From the IMG/VR virus record IMGVR_UViG_2671180676_000009: 34,976 nt of DNA, one strand, 5' to 3'. Under the pieces are notes generated by a model. The model worked only from the letters and a program-made list of their open reading frames with translations. It did not search any database and had not been told where the DNA came from. Numbering within the stretch: the stretch's first letter is position 1; the number at the start of each line of letters is the position of its first letter. Shown here in pieces: positions 2,475 through 33,692 of the stretch. The stretch is from a virus. Taxonomy: Duplodnaviria > Heunggongvirae > Uroviricota > Caudoviricetes. The position numbers and the translations under genes were made by a program.

Positions 2475-2520
2475 TTTTTCAACGATGGGCTTTGTATACC
2501 CGACGTTAAGAAAAAGTAGA

Positions 2521-2545
2521 AAACCCGCTGATGAGCGGGTTTTGT
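2521..2545. terminator. Bidirectional rho-independent terminator (candidate tR' for + strand, cspF terminator for - strand)
   Basis: Hairpin ACCCGCT-GATG-AGCGGGT flanked by an A-run upstream and a T-rich tract downstream. Confidence 0.6.
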
Positions 2546-2835
2546 GCTTTAAATGGGGCAATGGTAATGTTGAATCTCATCCCGGGACTCATGTCTGTTA
2601 ACTTATTATTTAGCTGGTGACTTGGTTATTTGCCTGATGTTTAAAATGTTTTCTTCCAGTACAATGTCCCTAAACACAATGAGTCTGCTTGTTATATTAT
2701 TAGCAGAGCTATTACGGCCAAAGTACAGCATAAGCTTTTAAAGCCAATCAACCAGTCATCAAGACAGACGGGGTTATTCATAAAAACTCTCCATGTGTGA
2801 TCCGATGGGGCCTGAAATTAAAGCTTTAATATAGC

Positions 2836-3048
2836 TCATGAAAGGTAAACATTGGCAGCTGAAGGGCCACGCAGACCATTTATCCGGCAAAATTCCACGC
2901 GTAATCCGGTGGTAATTTCTTCTGCATCGCGGAGATTGAGCGCTGAAACATGAAGCTGGACATCGATACGACCATCGGATGGGGTGATAAGACCCTTGCC
3001 GCTTTTGCCGTCAAAGGTTTTGACAATTCCTGTCATTTTACGGGACAA
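2836..3048 (-). CDS. cspF: Cold-shock protein family member CspF (70 aa)
   Basis: [26 protein letters not shown]... matches CspF/CspH branch lacking the canonical RNP aromatic motif. Confidence 0.9.
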
Positions 3049-3348
3049 AAAAATTCCTTAATACTGATAACTTGGCGCACTATACACACGTTCCTGAAGA
3101 AAGCTATAGTTTTTTGATGGGGTTGAAGATGGCTGGATGTCTAAAATAAACATTGCTTCATATGTTCAACTATGCGTTAATGATTGCGTCGGTTTGAAGA
3201 ACAGACGATATACGAAGTAGTTTACTAAAGCAGTTCTCATTTCAGGTGTTATTCACTTATTCCTTCTTTGAGTCTCTCCAATTAAGTACGAAGTCGTTTC
3301 TGTTATGCAAACCATTTATGCCGAAAGGCTCAAGTTAAGGAATGTAGA

Positions 3349-3564
3349 ATGTCAAATAAAATGACTGGTTTAGTAAAATGGTTTAACGCTGATAAAGGTT
3401 TCGGCTTTATTTCTCCTGTTGATGGTAGTAAAGATGTGTTTGTGCATTTTTCTGCGATTCAGAATGATAATTATCGAACCTTATTTGAAGGTCAAAAGGT
3501 TACCTTCTCTATAGAGAGTGGTGCTAAAGGTCCTGCAGCAGCAAATGTCATCATTACTGATTAA
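3349..3564 (+). CDS. cspB: Cold-shock protein CspB (71 aa)
   Basis: [38 protein letters not shown]...; long AT-rich leader upstream typical of cold-inducible csp genes. Confidence 0.95.
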
Positions 3565-3845
3565 AATTCATCGCTCGTCTGTATACGATAACGAAGAAGG
3601 CTGATGCCTGAGTAGAGATACGGACAGAGTAGTGAATATTGGATCTCTTTAATAAAAAGTAAGGAGGTCCAATACATGAAACAATGGCTAGCATATTTGG
3701 CAAAATCTTAATCAGGAAAAGTATGCTAACCATTGTGGTGAAGTGCAGGTTTGCTGCATGAATAGTTTTACAGCAGAAGCTAACTGCTGGCATGGCAAAA
3801 CAAAGTGCGTAAGTGGATGACTCCCACAAAAAGCACCACAATCTC

Positions 3846-3870
3846 AAACCCGCTCAGGCGGGTTTTTTAT
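3846..3870 (+). terminator. Rho-independent terminator
   Basis: Hairpin CCCGC-TCAG-GCGGG followed by TTTTTT at 3863-3868. Confidence 0.6.
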
Positions 3871-3927
3871 TATCTGCTTTAAATATATTATTAAAATATA
3901 AAAAATACTTGTTACTAATAAAATCAA

Positions 3928-4098
3928 TCAGGCTACAGCTTTAAGATTTGTCTGGAATACTTTGTTGCAATGAGGGCAGATCAAAAGGGCACCTTTTTGT
4001 ACTCTTGAAAAACTGTGTTCTGACTCTTGGGTGCAGTTTGGGCAGGAACATTTAACGAGATAATTACGGCGTGATTTTGAGTTTTTACGTTCTGACAT
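3928..4098 (-). CDS. Small C4 zinc-ribbon protein (56 aa), antisense to the late operon
   Basis: ATG at 4098 (minus) with AGGAAA 5 nt upstream; MSERKNSKSRRNYLVKCSCPNC-x18-CPHC (Cx2C...Cx2C) with basic N-terminus. Confidence 0.45.
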   Translation of the reverse strand: MSERKNSKSRRNYLVKCSCPNCTQESEHSFSRVQKGALLICPHCNKVFQTNLKAVA

Positions 4099-4317
4099 AG
4101 GCTTTTCCTGTATAAATGGCCGTATACAGTACACTAAATATGAAAACATTTCTCGTATTATTATTTTATATATGACTTTCTTTCAAAATAATTACCCACA
4201 TTTTTAATGTGTATGTTTTTTTAGCGCCGTTGAGAACAACGTGTGCTGTCAAAACTACCCCGTAGACTCCGATCTTTTCAAACATATTGCACCATCCGTG
4301 TACATCGGGGTGAGGAT

Positions 4318-4533
4318 ATGAAATCAATGGATAAGTTAACAACAGGTGTTGCCTATGGCACATCGGCGGGTAATGCTGGTTTCTGGGCATTGCAGTTACT
4401 CGATAAAGTAACTCCGTCACAGTGGGCTGCAATCGGTGTGCTGGGTAGCCTGGTTTTTGGCCTGCTGACGTATCTGACAAATCTTTATTTCAAGATTAAA
4501 GAAGACAGGCGTAAGGCTGCGAGAGGAGAGTAA
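4318..4533 (+). CDS. essQ: Holin, phage 21 S-type pinholin (71 aa) with dual-start motif MKSM
   Basis: [28 protein letters not shown]...[35 protein letters not shown]; RBS GGGGTGAGG before ATG; two TMDs. Confidence 0.9.
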
Positions 4534-4849: not shown

Positions 4850-5873
<1,024 letters not shown>

Positions 5874-6234
5874 GGTAATATTAAATCGGAACATTTACAT
5901 CGCGGAATGTAAAATTTAAATAAAAAGGACTCTTCCATGAGCCAAAATTCCTGAAATCTTAAGGGTAAGATAAAAGGTCTTAATCAGAATGACACGTTTT
6001 ATTAATAAATAAAGCTATTCTTTCATTGCTGTGTTTTTCTTTACAAAAGTAATCCTTGCTATGGGTGGTTAATCATGCGTTAATGGTGTTCTGGTTTGTT
6101 ACAAATTTATCTGAAGCAGTCATTGTTATAATTTTATTATTTGTACCTCTTGAGATTTCCTTGTTGGTTTTTCTCTCTGATATTTTTTTCGGACCATTCT
6201 GCCCAAGGGCTAATTTCTTCAAAAGGTAATAATT

Positions 6235-6447
6235 ATGTCTAACAAAATGACTGGTTTAGTGAAATGGTTTAACCCTGAAAAAGGTTTTGGTTTCATCACG
6301 CCGAAAGATGGCAGCAAAGATGTGTTTGTCCATTTCTCAGCAATTCAGAGCAACGATTTCAAAACATTAACTGAGAATCAGGAAGTTGAATTTGGTATTG
6401 AGAACGGACCTAAAGGTCCTGCCGCTGTTCATGTAGTGGCGCTTTGA
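6235..6447 (+). CDS. cspI: Cold-shock protein CspI (70 aa)
   Basis: [42 protein letters not shown]...; long AT-rich 5' leader. Confidence 0.95.
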
Positions 6448-6652
6448 GGTAGACAATATTACAAACCATATTCACTTTAGATGCCCGTGTTGTCATGGTT
6501 CCCAGTATAGAACATCATCTTTTGATGTTTCTGACATGAATCCTTTCGGGGCAAAATGTATCTTTTGTAAATCAATGATGATTACATTTGATAATATTTC
6601 ACAATACTTAAATGCCAGCCGTCTGTCGTTGGATTTAAAAAAGTGAAAATGA

Positions 6653-6675
6653 AGGCTCCTTCGGGAGCTTTTTTG
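6653..6675 (+). terminator. Rho-independent terminator
   Basis: Hairpin GGCTCC-TTCG-GGAGCT followed by TTTTTT. Confidence 0.6.
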
Positions 6676-6718
6676 CTTGGTGTCTATTCGATGGATACTC
6701 ACATACTACGGTAACATC

Positions 6719-6949
6719 ATGAAAAAAATCATAGTTTTTTTTAACTCTGAACCAGCAGTGGTAGTGCCAGCGATGACTGGAGTTAACACCATCATGCGTG
6801 AATATCCAAATGGCGAAAAAACACACCTTACTGTAATGGCCGCAGGGTTTCCATCTCTGACCGGAGATCATAAAGTCATTTATGTAGCCGCGGATCGACA
6901 TGTTACTTCAGAAGAAATTCTGGAAGCAGCAATAAGGCTCTTGAGTTGA
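6719..6949 (+). CDS. Hypothetical small protein in the cold-shock locus (76 aa from MKKIIV; possibly ynfN/ymcE-like)
   Basis: ORF in the position occupied by ynfN in K-12 Qin (between cspI and gnsB); start chosen at first ATG after the terminator; weak RBS. Confidence 0.4.
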   Translation: MKKIIVFFNSEPAVVVPAMTGVNTIMREYPNGEKTHLTVMAAGFPSLTGDHKVIYVAADRHVTSEEILEAAIRLLS

Positions 6950-7120
6950 TTTGATGCTATTGCATTGATAATTCAGGAAAATTCTCTTTGTCTGCTTGTG
7001 TAAAATTTAGACTATCGTATGTTGATTATTGCGATGTTTCATCTTATCTTTTACACGTTTGCACCATATAATCGACTTACTGTGTAACTGGAAAGTCATA
7101 ACAGACTAAAAGAGGAAATG

Positions 7121-7294
7121 ATGAATATTGAAAACTTAAAAACAAAAGCAGAAGCAGATATTTCTGAATATATAACAAAAAAAATTATTGAACTTAAGAA
7201 AAAGACCGGGAAAGAAGTTACCAGTATTCAGTTTACCGCACGGGAAAAAATGACGGGTCTTGAAAGCTATGATGTCAAGATTAATTTAATCTGA
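7121..7294 (+). CDS. gnsB: GnsA/GnsB-family small protein (57 aa)
   Basis: MNIENLKTKAEADISEYITKKIIELKKKTGKEVTSIQFTAREKMTGLESYDVKINLI; GAGG 6 nt upstream; below the 60-aa cutoff of the ORF track. Confidence 0.7.
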   Translation: MNIENLKTKAEADISEYITKKIIELKKKTGKEVTSIQFTAREKMTGLESYDVKINLI

Positions 7295-7445
7295 TGTATT
7301 CAATAATAAAATTTATCCATAAACCTCGTTTTTACGGGGTTTTGTTATATTTGAATGGTTCCGAATATCTAAATCACAATTGTTGATGGTTTTTATTAAA
7401 CCAATGCAGTCCGGCTCAGGAGTGAGAGAAGCCGGACGTTATGGT

Positions 7446-7856
7446 TTAGCGTGGTAAGATCTGTGTAGTTTTCTGGATGCTTTCAGTAAATAGTAATGAA
7501 TTATCAAAGGTATAGTAATATCTTTTTTGTTCGTGGATATTTGTAACCCACCGAAAAACTCCTGCTTTAGCAAGGTTTCTTCTGTATTCCTGAAATGTGA
7601 TCTCTCTGGATTTCAGCTTATTAGAGGTCGTTTCTATAAGATGCCTATCCTTTGAAAATTTGACAGACACAATGTTTTTTAGGCCCTTTAATAACACTGT
7701 ATTATCATTTTTTAATACAATATGAACATTCTCTGTGGCTAAATAGTAAATGTAATGTGAGACATTGTGACGTTTTAGCTCAGAATAAAACCATTGATAG
7801 TTTAAATCGTTTCGAACTTTATCAAATATTTGTTTAAAAATGACTACCTGATCCAT
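7446..7856 (-). CDS. ydfO: YdfO-like DUF1398 protein (136 aa)
   Basis: [40 protein letters not shown]...; GGAAGG 7 nt upstream of ATG at 7856. Confidence 0.8.
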
Positions 7857-7913
7857 AGATAAACCTTCCATGTGATATGAGGGGGCGTAGTCTGCACGAT
7901 TATCTAAATTGCT

Positions 7914-8147
7914 TCAATCTGGTCTGACCTGTTTTCTGAGCAATTCAGTAATGTCACTCTTTTCTTTGTTTGCTTCAGAAGAAACTCTTTTTTCTGAGCA
8001 CAGTCTCCGGCGGCAGGCTTCAATGACCCAGGCTGAGAAATTCCCGGACCCTTTTTGCTCAAGAGCGATGTTAATTTGTTCAATCATTTGGTTAGGAAAG
8101 CGGATGTTGCGGGTTGTTGTTCTGCGGGTTCTGTTCTTCGTTGACAT
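7914..8147 (-). CDS. ynfO: Arc/Mnt-like ribbon-helix-helix protein (77 aa), homologue of the rightmost lambda ORF
   Basis: N-terminal basic tail then IRFPNQMIEQINIALEQKGS-GNFSAWVIEACRRRL (beta-strand/helix/helix pattern as in Arc); lies immediately beside cos. Confidence 0.7.
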   Translation of the reverse strand: MSTKNRTRRTTTRNIRFPNQMIEQINIALEQKGSGNFSAWVIEACRRRLCSEKRVSSEANKEKSDITELLRKQVRPD

Positions 8148-23847: not shown

Positions 23848-26800
23848 ATGGGTAAAGGCAGCAGTAAGGGGCATACTCCGCGCGAAGCGAAGGACAACCT
23901 GAAGTCCACGCAGCTGCTGAGTGTGATCGATGCCATCAGCGAAGGGCCGGTTGAAGGTCCGGTGGATGGATTAAAAAGCGTGCTGCTGAACAGTACGCCA
24001 GTGCTGGACAGTGAGGGGAATACCAATATCTCCGGCGTCACGGTGGTGTTCCGGGCCGGTGAGCAGGAGCAGACACCGCCGGAGGGATTTGAATCCTCCG
24101 GCTCCGAGACGGTGCTGGGTACGGAAGTGAAATACGACACGCCGATCACCCGGACCATCACGTCGGCAAACATTGACCGACTGCGCTTTACCTTCGGTGT
24201 GCAGGCACTGGTGGAAACCACCTCAAAGGGGGACCGGAATCCGTCGGAAGTCCGCCTGCTGGTTCAGATACAGCGTAATGGTGGCTGGGTGACGGAAAAA
24301 GACATCACCATTAAAGGCAAAACCACCTCGCAGTATCTGGCCTCGGTGGTGGTGGATAACCTGCCGCCGCGCCCGTTTAATATCCGGATGCGCAGGATGA
24401 CGCCGGACAGCACCACAGACCAGTTGCAGAACAAAACGCTCTGGTCGTCATACACCGAAATCATCGATGTGAAACAGTGCTACCCGAACACGGCACTGGT
24501 CGGCGTACAGGTGGACTCGGAGCAGTTCGGTAGCCAGCAGGTGAGTCGTAATTATCATCTTCGCGGGCGCATTCTGCAGGTGCCGTCGAACTATAACCCG
24601 CAGACGCGACAATACAGCGGTATCTGGGACGGAACGTTAAAACCAGCATATAGCAACAACATGGCCTGGTGTCTGTGGAATATGCTGACCCATCCGCGCT
24701 ACGGCATGGGGAAACGTCTTGGTGCGGCGGATGTGGATAAATGGGCGCTGTATGTCATCGGCCAGTACTGCGACCAGTCGGTGCCGGACGGCTTTGGCGG
24801 CACGGAGCCGCGCATTACCTGTAATGCGTACCTGACCACACAGCGTAAGGCGTGGGATGTGCTCAGTGATTTCTGCTCGGCGATGCGCTGTATGCCGGTA
24901 TGGAACGGGCAGACGCTGACGTTCGTGCAGGACCGACCGTCGGATAAGGTGTGGACCTATAACCGCAGTAATGTGGTGATGCCGGATGATGGCGCGCCGT
25001 TCCGCTACAGCTTCAGCGCCCTGAAGGACCGCCATAATGCCGTTGAGGTGAACTGGATTGACCCGAACAACGGCTGGGAGACGGCGACAGAGCTTGTTGA
25101 AGATACGCAGGCCATTGCCTGTTACGGTCGTAATGTTATGAAGATGGATGCCTTTGGCTGTACCAGCCGGGGGCAGGCACACCGCGCCGGGCTGTGGCTG
25201 ATTAAAACGGAACTGCTGGAAACGCAGACCGTGGATTTCAGCGTGGGCGCAGAAGGACTTCGCCATGTGCCGGGCGATGTTATTGAAATCTGCGATGATG
25301 ACTATGCCGGTATCAGCACCGGCGGTCGCGTGCTGGCGGTGAACAGCCAGACCCGGACTCTGACGCTCGACCGTGAAATCACGCTGCCATCCTCCGGCAC
25401 CACGCTGATAAGCCTGGTTGACGGGCAGGGGAATCCGGTGAGCGTGGAGGTCCAGTCCGTCACTGACGGCGTGAAGGTGAAAGTGAGCCGTGTTCCTGAC
25501 GGCGTTGCCGAATACAGCGTGTGGGGACTGAAGCTGCCGACGCTGCGCCAGCGCCTGTTCCGCTGCGTGAGTATCCGTGAGAACGACGACGGCACGTATG
25601 CCATCACCGCCGTGCAGCATGTACCTGAAAAAGAGGCCATCGTGGATAACGGGGCGCACTTTGACGGCGACCAGAGCGGCACGGTGAATGGTGTCACGCC
25701 GCCAGCGGTGCAGCACCTGACCGCCGAAGTCACCGCAGACAGCGGGGAATATCAGGTGCTGGCGCGCTGGGACACGCCGAAGGTGGTGAAGGGCGTGAGC
25801 TTCCTGCTCCGTCTGACCGTAACAGCGGATGACGGCAGTGAGCGGCTGGTCAGCACGGCCCGGACGACGGAAACCACATACCGCTTCACGCAGCTGGCGC
25901 TGGGGAACTACAGGCTGACAGTCCGGGCGGTAAATGCGTGGGGGCAGCAGGGCGATCCGGCGTCGGTATCGTTCCGGATTGCCGCACCGGCAGCGCCGTC
26001 ACAGATTGAGCTGACGCCGGGCTATTTTCAGATAACCGCCACGCCGCATCTTGCGGTTTATGACCCGACGGTACAGTTTGAGTTCTGGTTCTCGGAAAAG
26101 CGGATTACCGATATCAGGCAGGTTGAAACCACAGCACGCTATCTTGGCACGGCGCTGTACTGGATAGCCGCCAGTATCAATATCAAACCGGGCCATGATT
26201 ATTACTTTTATATCCGCAGTGTGAACACCGTTGGCAAATCGGCATTCGTGGAGGCTGTTGGTCAGCCGAGTGATGATGCATCCGGTTATCTGGATTTTTT
26301 CAAAGGCGAGATAGGGAAAACCCATCTGGCTCAGGAGCTGTGGACGCAGATTGATAACGGTCAGCTTGCGCCTGACCTGGCTGAAATCAGGACGTCCATT
26401 ACGGATGTCAGCAATGAAATCACGCAGACCGTCAATAAGAAACTGGAAGACCAGAGTGCGGCAATTCAGCAGATACAGAAGGTTCAGGTTGATACAAATA
26501 ATAACCTGAACAGCATGTGGGCTGTGAAGCTGCAGCAGATGCAGGACGGACGCCTTTATATCGCGGGTATTGGTGCCGGTATTGAGAACACCCCTGACGG
26601 CATGCAGAGTCAGGTGCTGCTGGCGGCGGACAGGATTGCGATGGTTAATCCTGCGAATGGCAACACAAAACCGATGTTTGTTGGTCAGGGCGATCAGATA
26701 TTCATGAACGACGTGTTCCTGAAACGCCTGACGGCCCCCACCATTACCAGCGGTGGAAATCCACCGGCATTTTCCCTGACTCCGGACGGAAAGCTGACCG

Positions 26801-27345
26801 CTAAAAATGCGGATATCAGTGGCAGTGTGAATGCGAACGCCGGGACGCTCAACAATGTCACGGTAAATGAAAACTGTACGATTAAGGGCATGCTGGAGGC
26901 GACTCAGGTCAGAGGTGACTTCGTTAAAGCTGTATCCAAATCATTTCCGAAACAGGCTGGTACGTGGGGTAACACGGAAACACCAAACGGGACGGTTACA
27001 GTCACCATAAGCGATGATCATAACTTTGACCGTCAAATCATTATTCCGCCCATTATCTTTAACGGAATAGCGTATAGCGATCCGGGAAGTGGTAATAACC
27101 CGGGAGGTACAAGATACACGGGTTATGGTTTTGAAGTTCGCAAAAACGGTGTATTAATCGCATCCAGAGAAACTAAAGGGGCTATTCCCGGTAGCTACAG
27201 TGCGGTTATTGATATGCCGAGTGGCAGGGGAAGCGTCACTCTGGAGTTTAAGGTTTTCCATAAAGGCAATCAGTGGGCAGGTAATATCACCGACTGTACG
27301 GTGATTGTGACCAAAAAAGCGGCTTCAGGCATCAGTATTCGTTGA
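23848..27345 (+). CDS. J: Tail tip / host-specificity protein J (1165 aa)
   Basis: [41 protein letters not shown]...; lambda-like over most of its length but with a different, longer C-terminal segment. Confidence 0.9.
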
Positions 27346-27367: not shown

Positions 27368-27392
27368 GGCGTCAGGAATGACGCCTTTTTTA
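27368..27392 (+). terminator. Rho-independent terminator after J
   Basis: GGCGTCA-GGAA-TGACGCC followed by TTTTTT. Confidence 0.7.
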
Positions 27393-27415: not shown

Positions 27416-28015
27416 ATGCGTAAAGTTTGTGCAGCCATTTTGTCCGCAGCCATTTGTCTGGCCGTATCCGGTGCGCCTGCATGGGCGTCTGAACATCAGT
27501 CCACGCTGAGCGCGGGGTATCTTCATGCCCGGACCAACGTTCCCGGCAGTGATGATCTGAACGGGATTAACGTGAAATACCGTTATGAGTTTACGGATAC
27601 GCTGGGGATGGTGACGTCATTCAGCTATGCAGGAGACAAGAATCGCCAGCTTACCCGTTACAGCGATACCCGCTGGCATGAAGATTCCGTGCGTAACCGC
27701 TGGTTCAGCGTGATGGCGGGGCCGTCTGTGCGCGTGAATGAATGGTTCAGTGCGTATGCGATGGCGGGCGTGGCTTACAGCCGTGTGTCGACTTTTTCCG
27801 GGGATTATCTCCGCGTAACTGACAACAAGGGGAAAACGCACGACGTGCTGACCGGAAGTGATGACGGTCGCCACAGCAACACGTCTCTGGCGTGGGGAGC
27901 TGGCGTGCAGTTTAACCCGACCGAATCCGTGGTTATTGATGTCGCTTATGAAGGTTCCGGCAGTGGTGACTGGCGCACTGACGGTTTCATCGTGGGTGTC
28001 GGTTATAAATTCTGA
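27416..28015 (+). CDS. lom: Lom outer-membrane protein (Ail/Lom family beta-barrel, 199 aa)
   Basis: Signal peptide [24 protein letters not shown]; C-terminal ...GVGYKF; AGAGG RBS. Confidence 0.9.
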
Positions 28016-28042
28016 TTAGCCAGGTAACACAGTGTTATGACA

Positions 28043-28068
28043 GCCCGCCGGTTCAGGCGGGCTTTTTT
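28043..28068 (+). terminator. Rho-independent terminator after lom
   Basis: GCCCGCC-GGTTCA-GGCGGGC followed by TTTTTT. Confidence 0.7.
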
Positions 28069-28079
28069 GTGGGGGGAAT

Positions 28080-31000
28080 ATGGCAGTACGGATTTCAGGT
28101 GTACTGAAAGATGGCGCAGGTAAGCCGATACAAAACTGCACCATTCAGCTAAAGGCCAGGCGCAACAGCACCACGGTGGTGGTGAACACAGTGGCCTCAG
28201 AAAACCCGGATGAAGCCGGGCGTTACACAATGGACGTCGAGTATGGTCAGTACAGCGTCAGTCTGTTGGTGGAAGGATTCCCGCCGTCACATGCCGGGAC
28301 CATCACCGTGTATGAAGATTCCCGACCCGGTACGCTGAATGATTTTCTCGGTGCCATGACGGAGGATGATGCCCGTCCGGAGGCTCTGCGCCGTTTTGAA
28401 CTGATGGTGGAAGAGGTGGCGCGTAACGCGTCCGCGGTGGCACAGAACACGGCAGCCGCGAAGAAGTCAGCCAGTGATGCCGGCACATCTGCCAGTGAGG
28501 CGGCAACCCATGCGACTGATGCTGCAGGCTCAGCGCGTGCAGCCAGCACGTCAGCCGGACAGGCCGCGACGTCGGCTCAGGAGGCGTCTTCCAGCGCAGG
28601 AACGGCATCAACAAAGGCCACTGAAGCATCAAAAAGTGCTGCCGCTGCAGAGTCCTCAAAAAGCGCGGCGGCCACCAGTGCCGGTGCCGCGAAAACGTCA
28701 GAAACGAATGCTGCAGCGTCACAAAAATCAGCAGCCACTTCTGCATCCACTGCGACGACGAAAGCGTCAGAAGCCGCCACTTCAGCCCGGGATGCGGCGG
28801 CCTCCAAAGAGGCGGCAAAATCATCAGAAACGAACGCCTCCACAAGCGCCAGCAGTGCAGCCTCCTCGGCAACGGCGGCAGGAAATTCCGTGAAGGCGGC
28901 AAAAACGTCCGAGACGAATGCTAAGTCTTCTGAAACGGCAGCGGAACAGAGCGCCTCAGCTGCGGCAGACTCTGAGACAACAGCTGCATCATCGGCCCGT
29001 GAGGCGTCCATTAAGGCAGAGGAGGCAGCAGTCAGTGCCACCGCCGCCGGAAAATCGGCAGAAAGCGCCGCATCATCCGCTTCAACAGCCACAACGAAGG
29101 CTGGCGAAGCCACTGAACAGGCCAGCGCAGCAGCGAGGTCTGCTTCCGCAGCGAAGACATCCGAAACGAACGCGAAAGCGTCGGAAACCAGCGCAGAATC
29201 CTCAAAAACGGCTGCCGCATCGTCCGCCAGTTCGGCGGCGTCATCGGCATCATCGGCGTCTGCTTCAAAAGATGAGGCGACCAGACAGGCGTCAGCAGCG
29301 AGGGGCAGCGCCACGACGGCATCCACGAAGGCGACAGAGGCTGCTGGCAGTGCGGCAGCGGCAGCACAGAGCAAAACGGGCAGAGGATATTGCATCCGCC
29401 GTGGCGCTTGAGGATGCGAGCACGACGAAAAAGGGGATAGTACAGCTCAGTAGTGCGACTAACAGCACTTCCGAGTCACTGGCGGCAACACCAAAAGCCG
29501 TTAAGGCCGCGTATGACCTGGCTAACGGGAAATACACCGCACAGGATGCAACGACAGCACAGAAAGGGATAATCCAGCTAAGCAGCGCGACCAACAGCAC
29601 GTCTGAAACGCTTGCCGCGACACCAAAGGCAGTAAAAGCAGAAACGTCTGCAGAAAGATCAGAACGGTGCGGATATCCCTGGCAAAGATACCTTTACGAA
29701 AAATATTGGTGCCTGCCGTGCCTTCGGTGGGTCAGTAAGCACAACAACAGGAAACTGGACGACTGCACAGTTTATCGAGTGGCTGGATTCTCAGGGAGCA
29801 TTTAACCATCCATACTGGATGTGCAAGGGTTCCTGGTCTTATGGCAATAATAAAATCATTACTGATACTGACTGCGGTAATATTCATCTCGCCGGAGCTG
29901 TCATTGAAGTAATGGGGATAAAGTCAGCGATGACGATCCGCATTACCACACCGACCACCTCCACTGGTGGTGGAACAACTAACGCCCAGTTTACCTATAT
30001 TAATCACGGAACAGATTATTCACCTGGCTGGCGAAGGGACTATAACTCCAGAAATAAGCCAACGGCATCAGAGATCGGGGCGTTACCGTCAGGTGGAACA
30101 GCAGTATCATCAGTTAATCTGGCTTCAAAAGGTCGGGTAACCGCGCTGACAGACAATACGCAGGGGGCAGCAGGTCTTGAGTTATACGAGGTGTATAACA
30201 ACGGATATCCAACAGCGTATGGAAATATCATTCACCTGAAAGGGATGACAGCCGTTGGCGAAGGTGAGTTACTCATCGGCTGGAGTGGTACAAGCGGTGC
30301 TCATGCTCCGGCATTTATTCGTTCACGACGGGATACGACCGACGCAAACTGGTCGCCGTGGGCGCAGCTTTACACCTCGGCTCATCCTCCTGCAGAGTTT
30401 TATCCAGTCGGTGCACCAATCCCGTGGCCATCAGATACCGTTCCGTCTGGCTATGCCCTGATGCAGGGGCAGACTTTTGACAAATCTGCATACCCGAAAC
30501 TTGCAGTTGCTTATCCGTCAGGCGTGATCCCTGATATGCGTGGCTGGATGATTAAGGGCAAGCCCGCCAGTGGTCGGGCCGTATTATCTCAGGAACAGGA
30601 CGGCATTAAATCGCACACCCACAGCGCCAGCGCATCCAGTACGGATTTGGGGACGAAAACCACATCGTCGTTTGATTACGGAACCAAATCCACGAATAAC
30701 ACCGGGGCGCATACCCATAGTATTAGCGGGACCGCAAATAGTGCCGGTGCGCACCAACACAAGAGTTCCGGTGCATTTGGTGGCACGAACACGAGCATTT
30801 TCCCTAATGGTTATACCGCGATTTCAAATCTAAGCGCGGGGATTATGAGCACAACAAGCGGTAGTGGCCAGACTCGTAATGCAGGGAAGACATCATCAGA
30901 TGGTGCTCATACCCACTCGCTGTCCGGCACTGCTGCAAGCGCAGGCGCACATGCACATACTGTCGGTATTGGTGCTCATACGCACTCCGTTGCGATTGGT

Positions 31001-31093
31001 TCACATGGACACACCATCACCGTTAACGCTGCTGGTAACGCGGAAAACACCGTCAAAAACATCGCATTTAACTATATTGTGAGGCTTGCATAA
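28080..31093 (+). pseudogene. stf: Side tail fibre gene stf split across three reading frames (junctions near 29373-29376 and 29654-29656)
   Basis: Frame 0 (28080-29411) has the Stf N-terminus and A/S/T-rich repeat; frame 1 has AKRAEDIASAVALEDASTTKKGIVQLSSATNSTSE...ATPKAVKA; frame 2 continues to the His-rich Stf C-terminus ...[14 protein letters not shown]. Confidence 0.75.
28430..29370 (+). repeat. Low-complexity Ala/Ser/Thr-rich repetitive segment of Stf with recurring KTSETNA-type units
   Basis: About 310 codons dominated by A, S, T, K, E with repeated AAKTSETNA / AKSSETNA motifs; yields long spurious ORFs in other frames and on the opposite strand. Confidence 0.7.
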
Positions 31094-31668
31094 TGGCATT
31101 CAGAATGAGTGAACAACCACGGACCATAAAAATTTATAATCTGCTGGCCGGAACTAATGAATTTATTGGTGAAGGTGATGCATATATTCCGCCTCATACA
31201 GGTCTGCCAGCAAACAGTACCGATATTGCACCGCCAGATATTCCGGCTGGCTTCGTGGCTGTTTTCAACAGTGATGAGTCATCGTGGCATCTCGTTGAAG
31301 ATCATCGGGGTAAAACTGTTTATGACGTGGCTTCCGGCGACGCGTTATTTATTTCTGAACTCGGTCCGTTACCGGAAAATGTTACCTGGTTATCGCCGGA
31401 AGGGGAGTTTCAGAAGTGGAACGGCACAGCCTGGGTGAAGGATACGGAAGCAGAAAAACTGTTCCGGATCCGGGAGGCGGAAGAAACAAAAAACAACCTG
31501 ATGCAGGTAGCCAGTGAGCATATTGCGCCGCTTCAGGATGCTGCAGATCTGGAAATTGCAACGGAGGAAGAAATCTCGTTGCTGGAAGCATGGAAAAAGT
31601 ATCGGGTATTGCTGAACCGTGTTGATACGTCAACTGCACAGGATATTGAATGGCCAGCACTGCCGTAG
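31093..31668 (+). CDS. tfa: Tail fibre assembly chaperone Tfa (191 aa)
   Basis: ATG overlaps stf stop (TAATG); [48 protein letters not shown]... as Tfa proteins. Confidence 0.9.
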
Positions 31669-31765
31669 GGTAAAACATATAAATTCTATAATTAGATGTA
31701 TCTTTCCATTTACGGCAAGGAAGGGGGCTTGGAAGACGTAAAGCATCTCACACCGAGATTATTTT

Positions 31766-32356
31766 TTATATGTCAGGTGTCTGAAGTTTTGCTTTGGCTC
31801 TTAAAATGGTTTGCCGCGAGGTTTTGAATTCCCGGGCAATGGCACTTATACTTACACCTGACTTAATTCGTTCGAATACCGCCTGTTTCTGTTCTTCATT
31901 TAACACAGGTGGTCGACCAAAACGTTTCCCTGCGCCGCGGGCTCTTACTATCCCGGAATGAGTGCGTTCAAGTAAAAGGTCTCGTTCAAATTCAGCGACT
32001 GCTGAAATTACTTGCATCATCATTTTTCCTGTTGGACTGGTCAGGTCAATGCCCCCCAATGCTAAGCAATGCACTCTGATACCTGTTTCGGTCAGTTGTT
32101 CCACTGTTTTCCTGATATCCATTGCATTACAACCAAGGCGATCCAGTTTTGTCACAATCAATTGATCACCACATTTCAGGCGAGCAAGCAACCGGTTAAA
32201 ACCAGGACGCTCACTGGTTGCTGCTGAGCCGCTAATGTGTTCTTCGATTATTTGCTGAGGTTTGATTTTAAAACCTGCACTTTCGATTTCCCGGCGTTGA
32301 TTTTCGGTGGTCTGATCCAGCGTTGATATCCGACAGTAAGCAAAAATTTGAGACAT
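31766..32356 (-). CDS. pin: Serine recombinase, Pin/Gin/Hin-family DNA invertase (196 aa)
   Basis: [20 protein letters not shown]... with catalytic Ser in CRIST, resolvase core and C-terminal HTH; convergent with tfa. Confidence 0.9.
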
Positions 32357-32672
32357 AGTGAGACTCTATACGAAATTGGTGTTCATATCATAATGCATCT
32401 CAGAAAATAATTATGATTATTTTTGTGCATATTTGTATGTACACGTTCGAAAATAAACGAATGCGTATGCAACCCCGTAATTTTGGTGAGACCCAAAATC
32501 GATTTTGTGAAAAATGGCTTTAACTCGGTTTGTTTTTCGAGTTCCGGGCGGACTCAAGGAAGAAGAATAGTGTTGCGTGTTATTTTAACCAGATTTCAAG
32601 TTGTTTGGTCGTGGAAAAGTGGAGCAAAATGTTGTTAAAGTGGAAAAATGATAAAAAAGTAAGTTTATTATA

Positions 32673-32906
32673 TTACATTTTACCATTTAAATTTTGGTTG
32701 TCTTTAAGAACTGATATCGCTGTTTGTAATAATTCTTTGTTATCCAGCCATGATTTTTTCTTTATGTTTCCTTCAATGTAATCAAGCAATGTTCTGGTAT
32801 TGATAGGTCTTCCCTGTTTTGCTACTTCCACTACAGCATCCCCTAGGATAATTCTTACTTCAGGAAGCTGCGCAGGGAACCACTTTAGGGTGTCTTTTGA
32901 TTTCAT
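32673..32906 (-). CDS. ydfK: YdfK/YnaE-family small protein (77 aa)
   Basis: MKSKDTLKWFPAQLPEVRIILGDAVVEVAKQGRPINTRTLLDYIEGNIKKKSWLD...; AAGGAA 7 nt upstream of ATG at 32906. Confidence 0.8.
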   Translation of the reverse strand: MKSKDTLKWFPAQLPEVRIILGDAVVEVAKQGRPINTRTLLDYIEGNIKKKSWLDNKELLQTAISVLKDNQNLNGKM

Positions 32907-33692
32907 GAAGATATTCCTTAAAATATTATTGATTTTCATTGCGATATTGTATGTCTGATTCAGGATATGTTGACTTATACATCGGTTTTGTCTGGGTTAT
33001 TGGATATGCCAATCCCTAATTTTATTAGGGCATGACTAAAAATGCTGAATATGATAAGGAGAGATGTGATTATCAGTATGCTGTTCATATAGCCTCGAAT
33101 TAGTAATGTGTTATATATGATATAGTTGACAATTTTTATCTTGGGTGTTCTTAAAGTTCGTAGATAAACATTGTCGTTTCAGGTATACAGGAATGCTAAC
33201 AGGTGGCAGCAAAAATCAGGCGGTTTATGGCGCAAGCTGAAGCGGCAACTGCAAACTATCTTATGCAGAGACTCTACACGGATTGGGTTTAAAAGTATAC
33301 ATAGATAACAGTTTTTATCTGAAAAAGAAAAATATCAAGGTGATATAGCCTATATGCCTTTGATGCGGAGGAATGAATGTGATGGGAGTGATGTATCTGA
33401 ATAGTTGAAAAACCGCAGACACGCCTTATGCAAGAACGTGCTGCGATTGGCTGGTAAATTTTTCGATAGTGTGAGTATTGAATGATTTCTAGCCGTTCTT
33501 GATTTTACGCATAAATCCATGAAAAAACTACTTATCTGTTGGGGAGTTTTTTTGGGGCATATATGGGACAGAAATAGGCCCCAGATAGACACTGAGATCG
33601 AACTTAGGATGCTTTTTAAAAAAATGCAACTATCTGAAAAAACCTAGAAAACGCCAAGGAAACCACAGGATGGGAAAAAACACCTGTGAATT

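Follow-up and report, generated by a model that had tools for sequence, protein, structure and literature searches.

A mosaic lambda-type J protein with a long shaft and a 434-type tip of predicted OmpC specificity

Gene J, its parts and its neighbours

The window, that is, the whole stretch of 34,976 nucleotides from a virus of the Caudoviricetes (IMG/VR record IMGVR_UViG_2671180676_000009), contains on its plus strand gene J for the tip attachment protein or central tail fibre (23848..27345), a single open reading frame of 1165 codons followed by a TGA stop. The protein carries the complete Pfam domain series of gpJ, consisting of FNIII-A_GpJ, Phage-tail_3, Ig_J, Ig_J_second, Phage_Tail_Tip and Ig_GpJ_C; the families PF24801, PF13550, PF24421, PF24489, PF09327 and PF12421 all score above their curated cut-offs, which identifies it as a lambda-type J by domain content. 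The position of the gene agrees with this assignment. Upstream lie open reading frames that match lambda M, L, K and I in size and order, and downstream lie lom, stf and tfa, an arrangement that equals the annotated gene order in lambda, 434 and PhiR42_1.

The J protein of lambda (NC_001416, 15505..18903; P03749) served as the reference for comparisons by BLASTP and MAFFT. The lengths given in the sequence-only reading, 1165 residues here and 1132 in lambda, are both correct according to the list of open reading frames and NC_001416. Overall the two proteins are 82% identical, with the identity distributed very unevenly along the chain. The hub and FNIII part (residues 1–805; 23848..26262, plus strand) is of the lambda/434 type, with 787 of its 805 residues identical to lambda (98%) and 794 identical to 434, which bears out the earlier statement that J is lambda-like over most of its length. 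Next follow, on the same strand, a divergent shaft block (residues 806–945; 26263..26682), a long variant that exceeds the lambda block by 28 residues and in which 57 of 112 residues are identical to lambda (51%), and a conserved island in the lower beta-prism (residues 946–1007; 26683..26868), where the fraction rises to 56 of 62 (90%). The remaining part, also on the plus strand, is a receptor-binding domain of the 434 type with OmpC as its predicted ligand (residues 1008–1165; 26869..27342), which shares 62 of 147 residues with lambda (42%) and is interrupted by 17 gap positions. At the DNA level the identity to lambda drops sharply, from 98% over positions 26788–26847 to 47% over positions 26908–26967. 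J combines three known modules in a mosaic: a lambda/434-type hub, a long shaft and, beyond the conserved island, a 434-type tip.

The departure of the C-terminus from lambda, which was the central claim of the sequence-only reading, is thereby confirmed, but its limits need correction. The peptide quoted as the beginning of the different region starts at residue 993 (nucleotide 26824), whereas the divergence begins approximately 13–15 residues later. Similarly, the interval assigned to the region (26280–27345) ends properly on the last base of the TGA codon, but its first position lies in codon 811, at the start of the shaft block that had not been described. The extra length had been implied to belong to the distal domain; 28 of the 33 residues by which J exceeds lambda J are instead located in the shaft block. 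The receptor domain contributes a net five residues, the same difference that gives 434 J its 1137 residues.

The base composition changes along the gene, with GC and GC3 values of 58.8% and 71.6% in the hub, 50.7% and 59.3% in the shaft, and 46.6% and 44.9% in the tip. The compositional step within J is strong (GC3 of about 45% in the tip, 26869–27342, versus about 72% in the hub, 23848–26262), and it is consistent with a tip module of separate origin.

Between J and lom, a consensus scan identifies a terminator-like hairpin, GGCGTCAGGAATGACGCC followed by TTTTTT (27368..27391, plus strand), at a place where a terminator is annotated in 434. The gene lom (27416..28015, plus strand) encodes an outer-membrane protein of the Ail/Lom type (PF06316, E 4e-122). 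Directly after it lies a second terminator-like hairpin (28042–28063), which matches the terminator annotation of 434. With one hairpin directly after J and another directly after lom, lom appears to be bracketed as a unit of its own. The side tail fibre gene stf (28080..31093, plus strand) is broken, its sequence being distributed over three open reading frames in three frames. Compared with the intact stf of PhiR42_1 (3078 nucleotides) it lacks 44 bp at one site and 17 bp at another, and each loss shifts the frame; the junctions lie near 29375 and 29649, and a 7-bp direct repeat, AGCAAAA, borders the 44-bp deletion. Among 5426 complete E. coli genomes, all of the ten best matches listed span 482 bp in two pieces and thus carry the longer form, with neither deletion. 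The break in stf reflects either a pseudogene private to this phage, comparable to the frameshifted stf of lambda PaPa, or a mistake in assembly. Should the deletions be genuine, the phage would lack side fibres, as does lambda PaPa, and would adsorb via J alone. The tail fibre assembly gene tfa (31093..31668, plus strand) is intact (PF02413 Caudo_TAP, E 3.6e-43). Just after tfa, on the minus strand, an open reading frame of 196 residues is found (31766–32356), the counterpart of which in PhiR42_1 is annotated as a serine recombinase of the PinQ/PinR type. In the regions 2500–4500, 5500–8000 and 31500–33500 the GC content is low (33–40%, versus about 57% in the structural genes), and here the prophage probably carries accessory or moron regions.

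The modules of J and their exchange

The family PF12421 (Ig_GpJ_C, 'C-terminal receptor binding domain') matches residues 1029–1164 of J with an E-value of 9.6e-26. A tblastn search with the last 161 residues of J against 50,697 phage records yields a bimodal distribution of identities: 74 records reach 90% or above, 169 stay below 60% and the range between is empty, so that the tip falls cleanly into a single allele class. Phage 434 belongs to the upper mode (94.4%), while lambda scores 38%. Alignment with lambda and other lambdoid J proteins, proposed in the sequence-only reading as a check, assigns the tip to the 434 allele: over residues 1008–1165 it is identical to 434 J at 150 of 158 positions (95%) without any gap. 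The same domain occurs unchanged in PhiR49_1 (158/158) and in Ayreon (100%). Close similarity to the C-terminal 150 residues of lambda J, named in the sequence-only reading as grounds for refuting its claim, is not observed; the identity is 39% over residues 1029–1165.

Relative to lambda, the tip shows indels at or near lambda positions 1012, 1048/49, 1077/78 and 1107. With 42% identity, a two-residue insertion near lambda 1012 and a six-residue deletion after lambda 1107, it does not belong to the LamB-type module of lambda; in the alignment, lambda S1012 and D1107 are equivalent to N1042 and N1146, respectively. The study by Maddamsetti et al. (2018, PMC6646904) gives the same four lambda sites as marks of lineage splits in the specificity region of J. 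Nor is the tip of the A8/phi330 type, being 45% identical to the tip of phi330 (phi330 J residues 887–1041). Judged by its sequence, the tip domain is a true homologue of the receptor-binding domain of lambda, but of another, already known allele class. Within this class it differs from 434 by nine substitutions (V1006I, E1008Q, S1032A, Q1036K, A1037V, N1047D, S1077D, R1127G and W1143R). Position 1143, which is W, R or G in 434-type alleles and W here, corresponds in the alignment to lambda H1104; D1107 of lambda lies three residues further on. In the AlphaFold2 monomer model described below, which is of low confidence, several of the nine differences are located in or beside loops.

Matches of J in the Protein Data Bank comprise lambda gpJ (8xcj and 8iyk) and A8 gpJ (9wca), with E-values of 1e-95 to 1e-104; the best match is A8 gpJ, mainly via the conserved beta-prism. 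Two candidates for the same tip were rejected. Phage phi330, which is OmpC-dependent and related to WGPS6, was ruled out as a sharer because its tip is of the A8 type. The gpJ of 1A2 was rejected as a 434-type protein on account of its different C-terminus, as seen by eye in the unaligned, machine-read DNA of the supplement to PMC11338833. The J gene of phi330 (PV189401, 17482–20610) is annotated as encoding only 1042 residues. A comparison of two alignments by eye indicates that the phi330 tip corresponds almost residue for residue to the A8 gpJ chain of 9wca, and the engineered A8 module and this natural Stx-phage tip thus appear to represent the same allele class.

In lambda, the counterpart of the shaft block comprises the alpha-helical shaft (lambda 809–861) and the top of the beta-prism (PMC11101478). 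The block is 51–52% identical to both lambda and 434, with the 28 extra residues present with respect to each of them. These residues lie within 26353..26445 (plus strand) and appear in the MAFFT alignment as two gap blocks, D836–N856 (21 residues) and Q860–L866 (seven residues). The long variant is shared with cdtI (99% identity) and with WGPS6 and PhiR42_1 (95–96%). An AlphaFold2 monomer model of residues 806–1165, calculated with 20 database homologues as input and used for rough secondary structure only, is poor, with a mean pLDDT of 51 and an unmodelled beta-prism, and represents a single chain of an obligate trimer. It places residues 841–890 in one long helix (pLDDT 56–65), and its tip domain has pLDDT values of 67–89. 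This long helix hints that the insertion may lengthen the helical shaft. No single register stood out clearly when the shaft was scored for heptads, and by analogy with lambda the shaft may form a coiled coil; if so, the 28 extra residues would correspond to exactly four heptads and would add approximately 4 nm. The literature search found no paper on length polymorphism of the J shaft or on its effect. As a tentative and rather doubtful suggestion, the long shaft may govern the distance over which the tip can extend across a capsule or O-antigen layer, or alter the force or the threshold at which the shaft refolds and opens the tail; in parallel, the W/R/G variation at position 1143 and the other loop differences from 434 may tune the choice of OmpC alleles that the tip accepts.

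The conserved island is 89–94% identical to lambda, 434 and PhiR49_1, contains long runs of invariant columns and hardly varies across the module combinations described below. It includes G992, the residue aligned with position 964 of lambda, at which chimeric gpJ proteins were joined (PMC11338833). From these alignments, the island is likely to be the crossover site between the shaft and tip modules. Combinations of the two modules were scored among the best 120 matches in a collection of 5.8 billion proteins. A long shaft is joined to an A8-type tip in 32 of these 120, and further combinations are a long shaft with a 434-type tip, a phi330-type shaft with a 434-type tip, and a short lambda-type shaft with a 434-type tip. 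Judged from these best 120 matches, the two modules are exchanged freely between relatives in the databases. PhiR49_1, for example, has the tip of the window at 100% identity but a short shaft, and cdtI and PhiR42_1 have the shaft of the window. The 'specificity region' of J (lambda 960–1132) is presented as an independently recombining module by Maddamsetti et al. (2018, PMC6646904). The tip swap in the window is real, ordinary and already published, the allele, the receptor class and the modular exchange all being known. Only the variant of shaft length, which reassorts on its own, has been described slightly less fully.

The predicted receptor

The host-range allele of 434 has been known since the 1970s. 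Receptor specificity is set by the C-terminal part of J, and replacement of lambda J by the tail-fibre gene of 434 moves adsorption from LamB to OmpC, the receptor of 434 itself (PMC3509688, PMC11101478). In the hybrid lambda h434 imm21 (OM418627), the sites that tell the two parents apart are of lambda type up to J codon 705 and of 434 type from codon 711 onwards, including lom and stf, which places the h434 host-range determinant either among the final ~430 codons of J or further downstream. Within these codons the differences between lambda and 434 are almost confined to the tip. Since the hybrid carries lom and stf of 434 as well, it does not on its own assign the use of OmpC to the tip.

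Two further tip alleles that occur naturally in the family, A8/phi330 and 1A2, likewise act on OmpC. For the A8 and 1A2 tips this follows from delivery experiments in which strains lacking both lamB and ompC were complemented with variants of ompC (PMC11338833), and for phi330 from a Keio knock-out and its complementation (PMC12502783). OmpC is thus the usual ligand in this family of J tips, LamB so far being documented only for lambda's own type. In addition Ayreon, which has the identical tip, was isolated on a derivative of E. coli K-12 (PMC5764929), so that the tip would recognise something displayed by K-12. On the basis of homology, the J protein of the window very probably binds OmpC rather than LamB. 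The suggestion in the sequence-only reading of a receptor other than LamB thus gains support from the 95% tip identity to 434, an OmpC user in the literature.

In the proposed mechanism, three copies of J would form the central tail fibre, as in lambda, and their Ig-like tip domains would dock on a trimeric outer-membrane porin, most probably OmpC. Binding to the porin would trigger a rearrangement of the shaft and prism, by which the tail tip opens for DNA ejection. By analogy, we infer that the OmpC specificity is retained in a copy with 95% identity and that triggering proceeds as in lambda. No reported receptor was found in the literature for cdtI, phi458, Ayreon, ev099, PhiR42_1, mEp332, Kati or Stx2a_WGPS6. 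The BASEL completion paper, a receptor-prediction preprint, the SNIPE paper (which used PhiR phages) and the Chi-site paper on lambdoid phages likewise name no receptor for any phage whose tip equals or closely resembles this one, and the literature search found no adsorption or knock-out data for the exact J sequence or for phages with a 100% identical tip. The distinction between OmpC and LamB is one that can be called from sequence alone, which makes it useful for host-range prediction and also helps the choice of gpJ modules for engineered lambda particles.

The nine substitutions might have shifted the specificity while the 434-type fold was kept, either to another porin, such as OmpF, or to only some OmpC variants, the one of K-12 not among them. 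Four substitutions within the specificity region can be enough for lambda to gain OmpF as a new porin, and D1107 is one of the two residues critical for this gain (PMC6646904); W1143, at a position that varies among the 434-type alleles, lies near the equivalent of this residue. OmpC is moreover polymorphic, and the A8 and 1A2 tips differ in the OmpC variants that they accept (PMC11338833). Such a shift is nevertheless unlikely, as an identity of 95% without indels is well inside one allele class, phages with the identical tip (Ayreon and PhiR49_1) have been propagated on K-12 or ECOR13, and no receptor-changing substitutions are known within the 434-type class. It is scarcely credible that the tip still binds LamB as in lambda, with the sequence difference reflecting neutral drift in a LamB-binding domain. 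The fold family (PF12421) is indeed common to the lambda tip, and the use of LamB by unrelated phages indicates that LamB binding tolerates diverse sequences (PMC11101478). However, the identity to lambda is only 39–42%, four indel sites are present, including the six-residue deletion at the lambda 1107 loop, and the nearly identical 434 tip is documented to depend on OmpC and not on LamB (PMC3509688).

The two frameshifting deletions in the neighbouring stf could also be taken to mean that J resides in a decaying prophage and is no longer a functional adsorption protein. J itself, however, is uninterrupted over its 1165 codons, and the head and tail open reading frames from Nu1 to tfa have the expected sizes, with the exception of stf. 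Positions 8000–32900 of the window are furthermore 96.8% identical, over 99% of their length, to the sequenced phage PhiR42_1. Loss of stf does not abolish infectivity in lambda PaPa (PMC12617516). Decay of J is very improbable, and a functional J that binds OmpC remains the preferred reading.

Comparison with known J proteins

Over the whole J gene, the DNA identity to ev099, cdtI, phi458, Ayreon, Kati, PhiR42_1 and mEp332 is 95–97%, and over positions 26280–27345 it is 99.3% for phi458 and 92.1% for WGPS6. Of 5426 complete E. coli genomes, 1164, or about one fifth, contain the 1083-nucleotide segment of shaft and tip, a genome being counted when at least 80% of the segment is covered.

The J protein of lambda (P03749; 8iyk and 8xcj) has the same domain architecture, with 98% identity in the hub and 90% in the island, and its tip belongs to the same family of Ig-like folds. 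In contrast, its tip is only 42% identical, its shaft is 28 residues shorter and its receptor is LamB, whereas OmpC is predicted for the J protein of the window. The J protein of 434 (UMO75286, OL657226) is 95% identical in the tip and 99% in the hub, and both phages have the J-lom-stf order and a terminator after J. Unlike the J protein of the window, 434 J has a short lambda-type shaft and a total of 1137 residues; the long shaft exceeds it by 28 residues and is 52% identical over residues 806–945. In addition, the nine substitutions between residues 1006 and 1143 separate the two proteins.

A8 gpJ (9wca and 9wcb) and phi330 J are members of the same family and have the same fold, and their use of OmpC is experimentally established (PMC11338833, PMC12502783). 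Their tip, 45% identical to that of the window, forms a separate allele class, which is often joined to a long shaft of the type found in the window. The break point, the indel sites and the independent inheritance of the tip observed in the window fit the specificity region of Maddamsetti et al. (2018, PMC6646904); the accessible part of that paper describes neither a separate shaft module nor its length variants. Close counterparts are also the J proteins of cdtI, phi458, Ayreon, ev099, PhiR42_1, mEp332, Kati and Stx2a_WGPS6, which all consist of 1165 residues, combine the same long shaft with a 434-type tip, and differ from the J protein of the window by point differences only.
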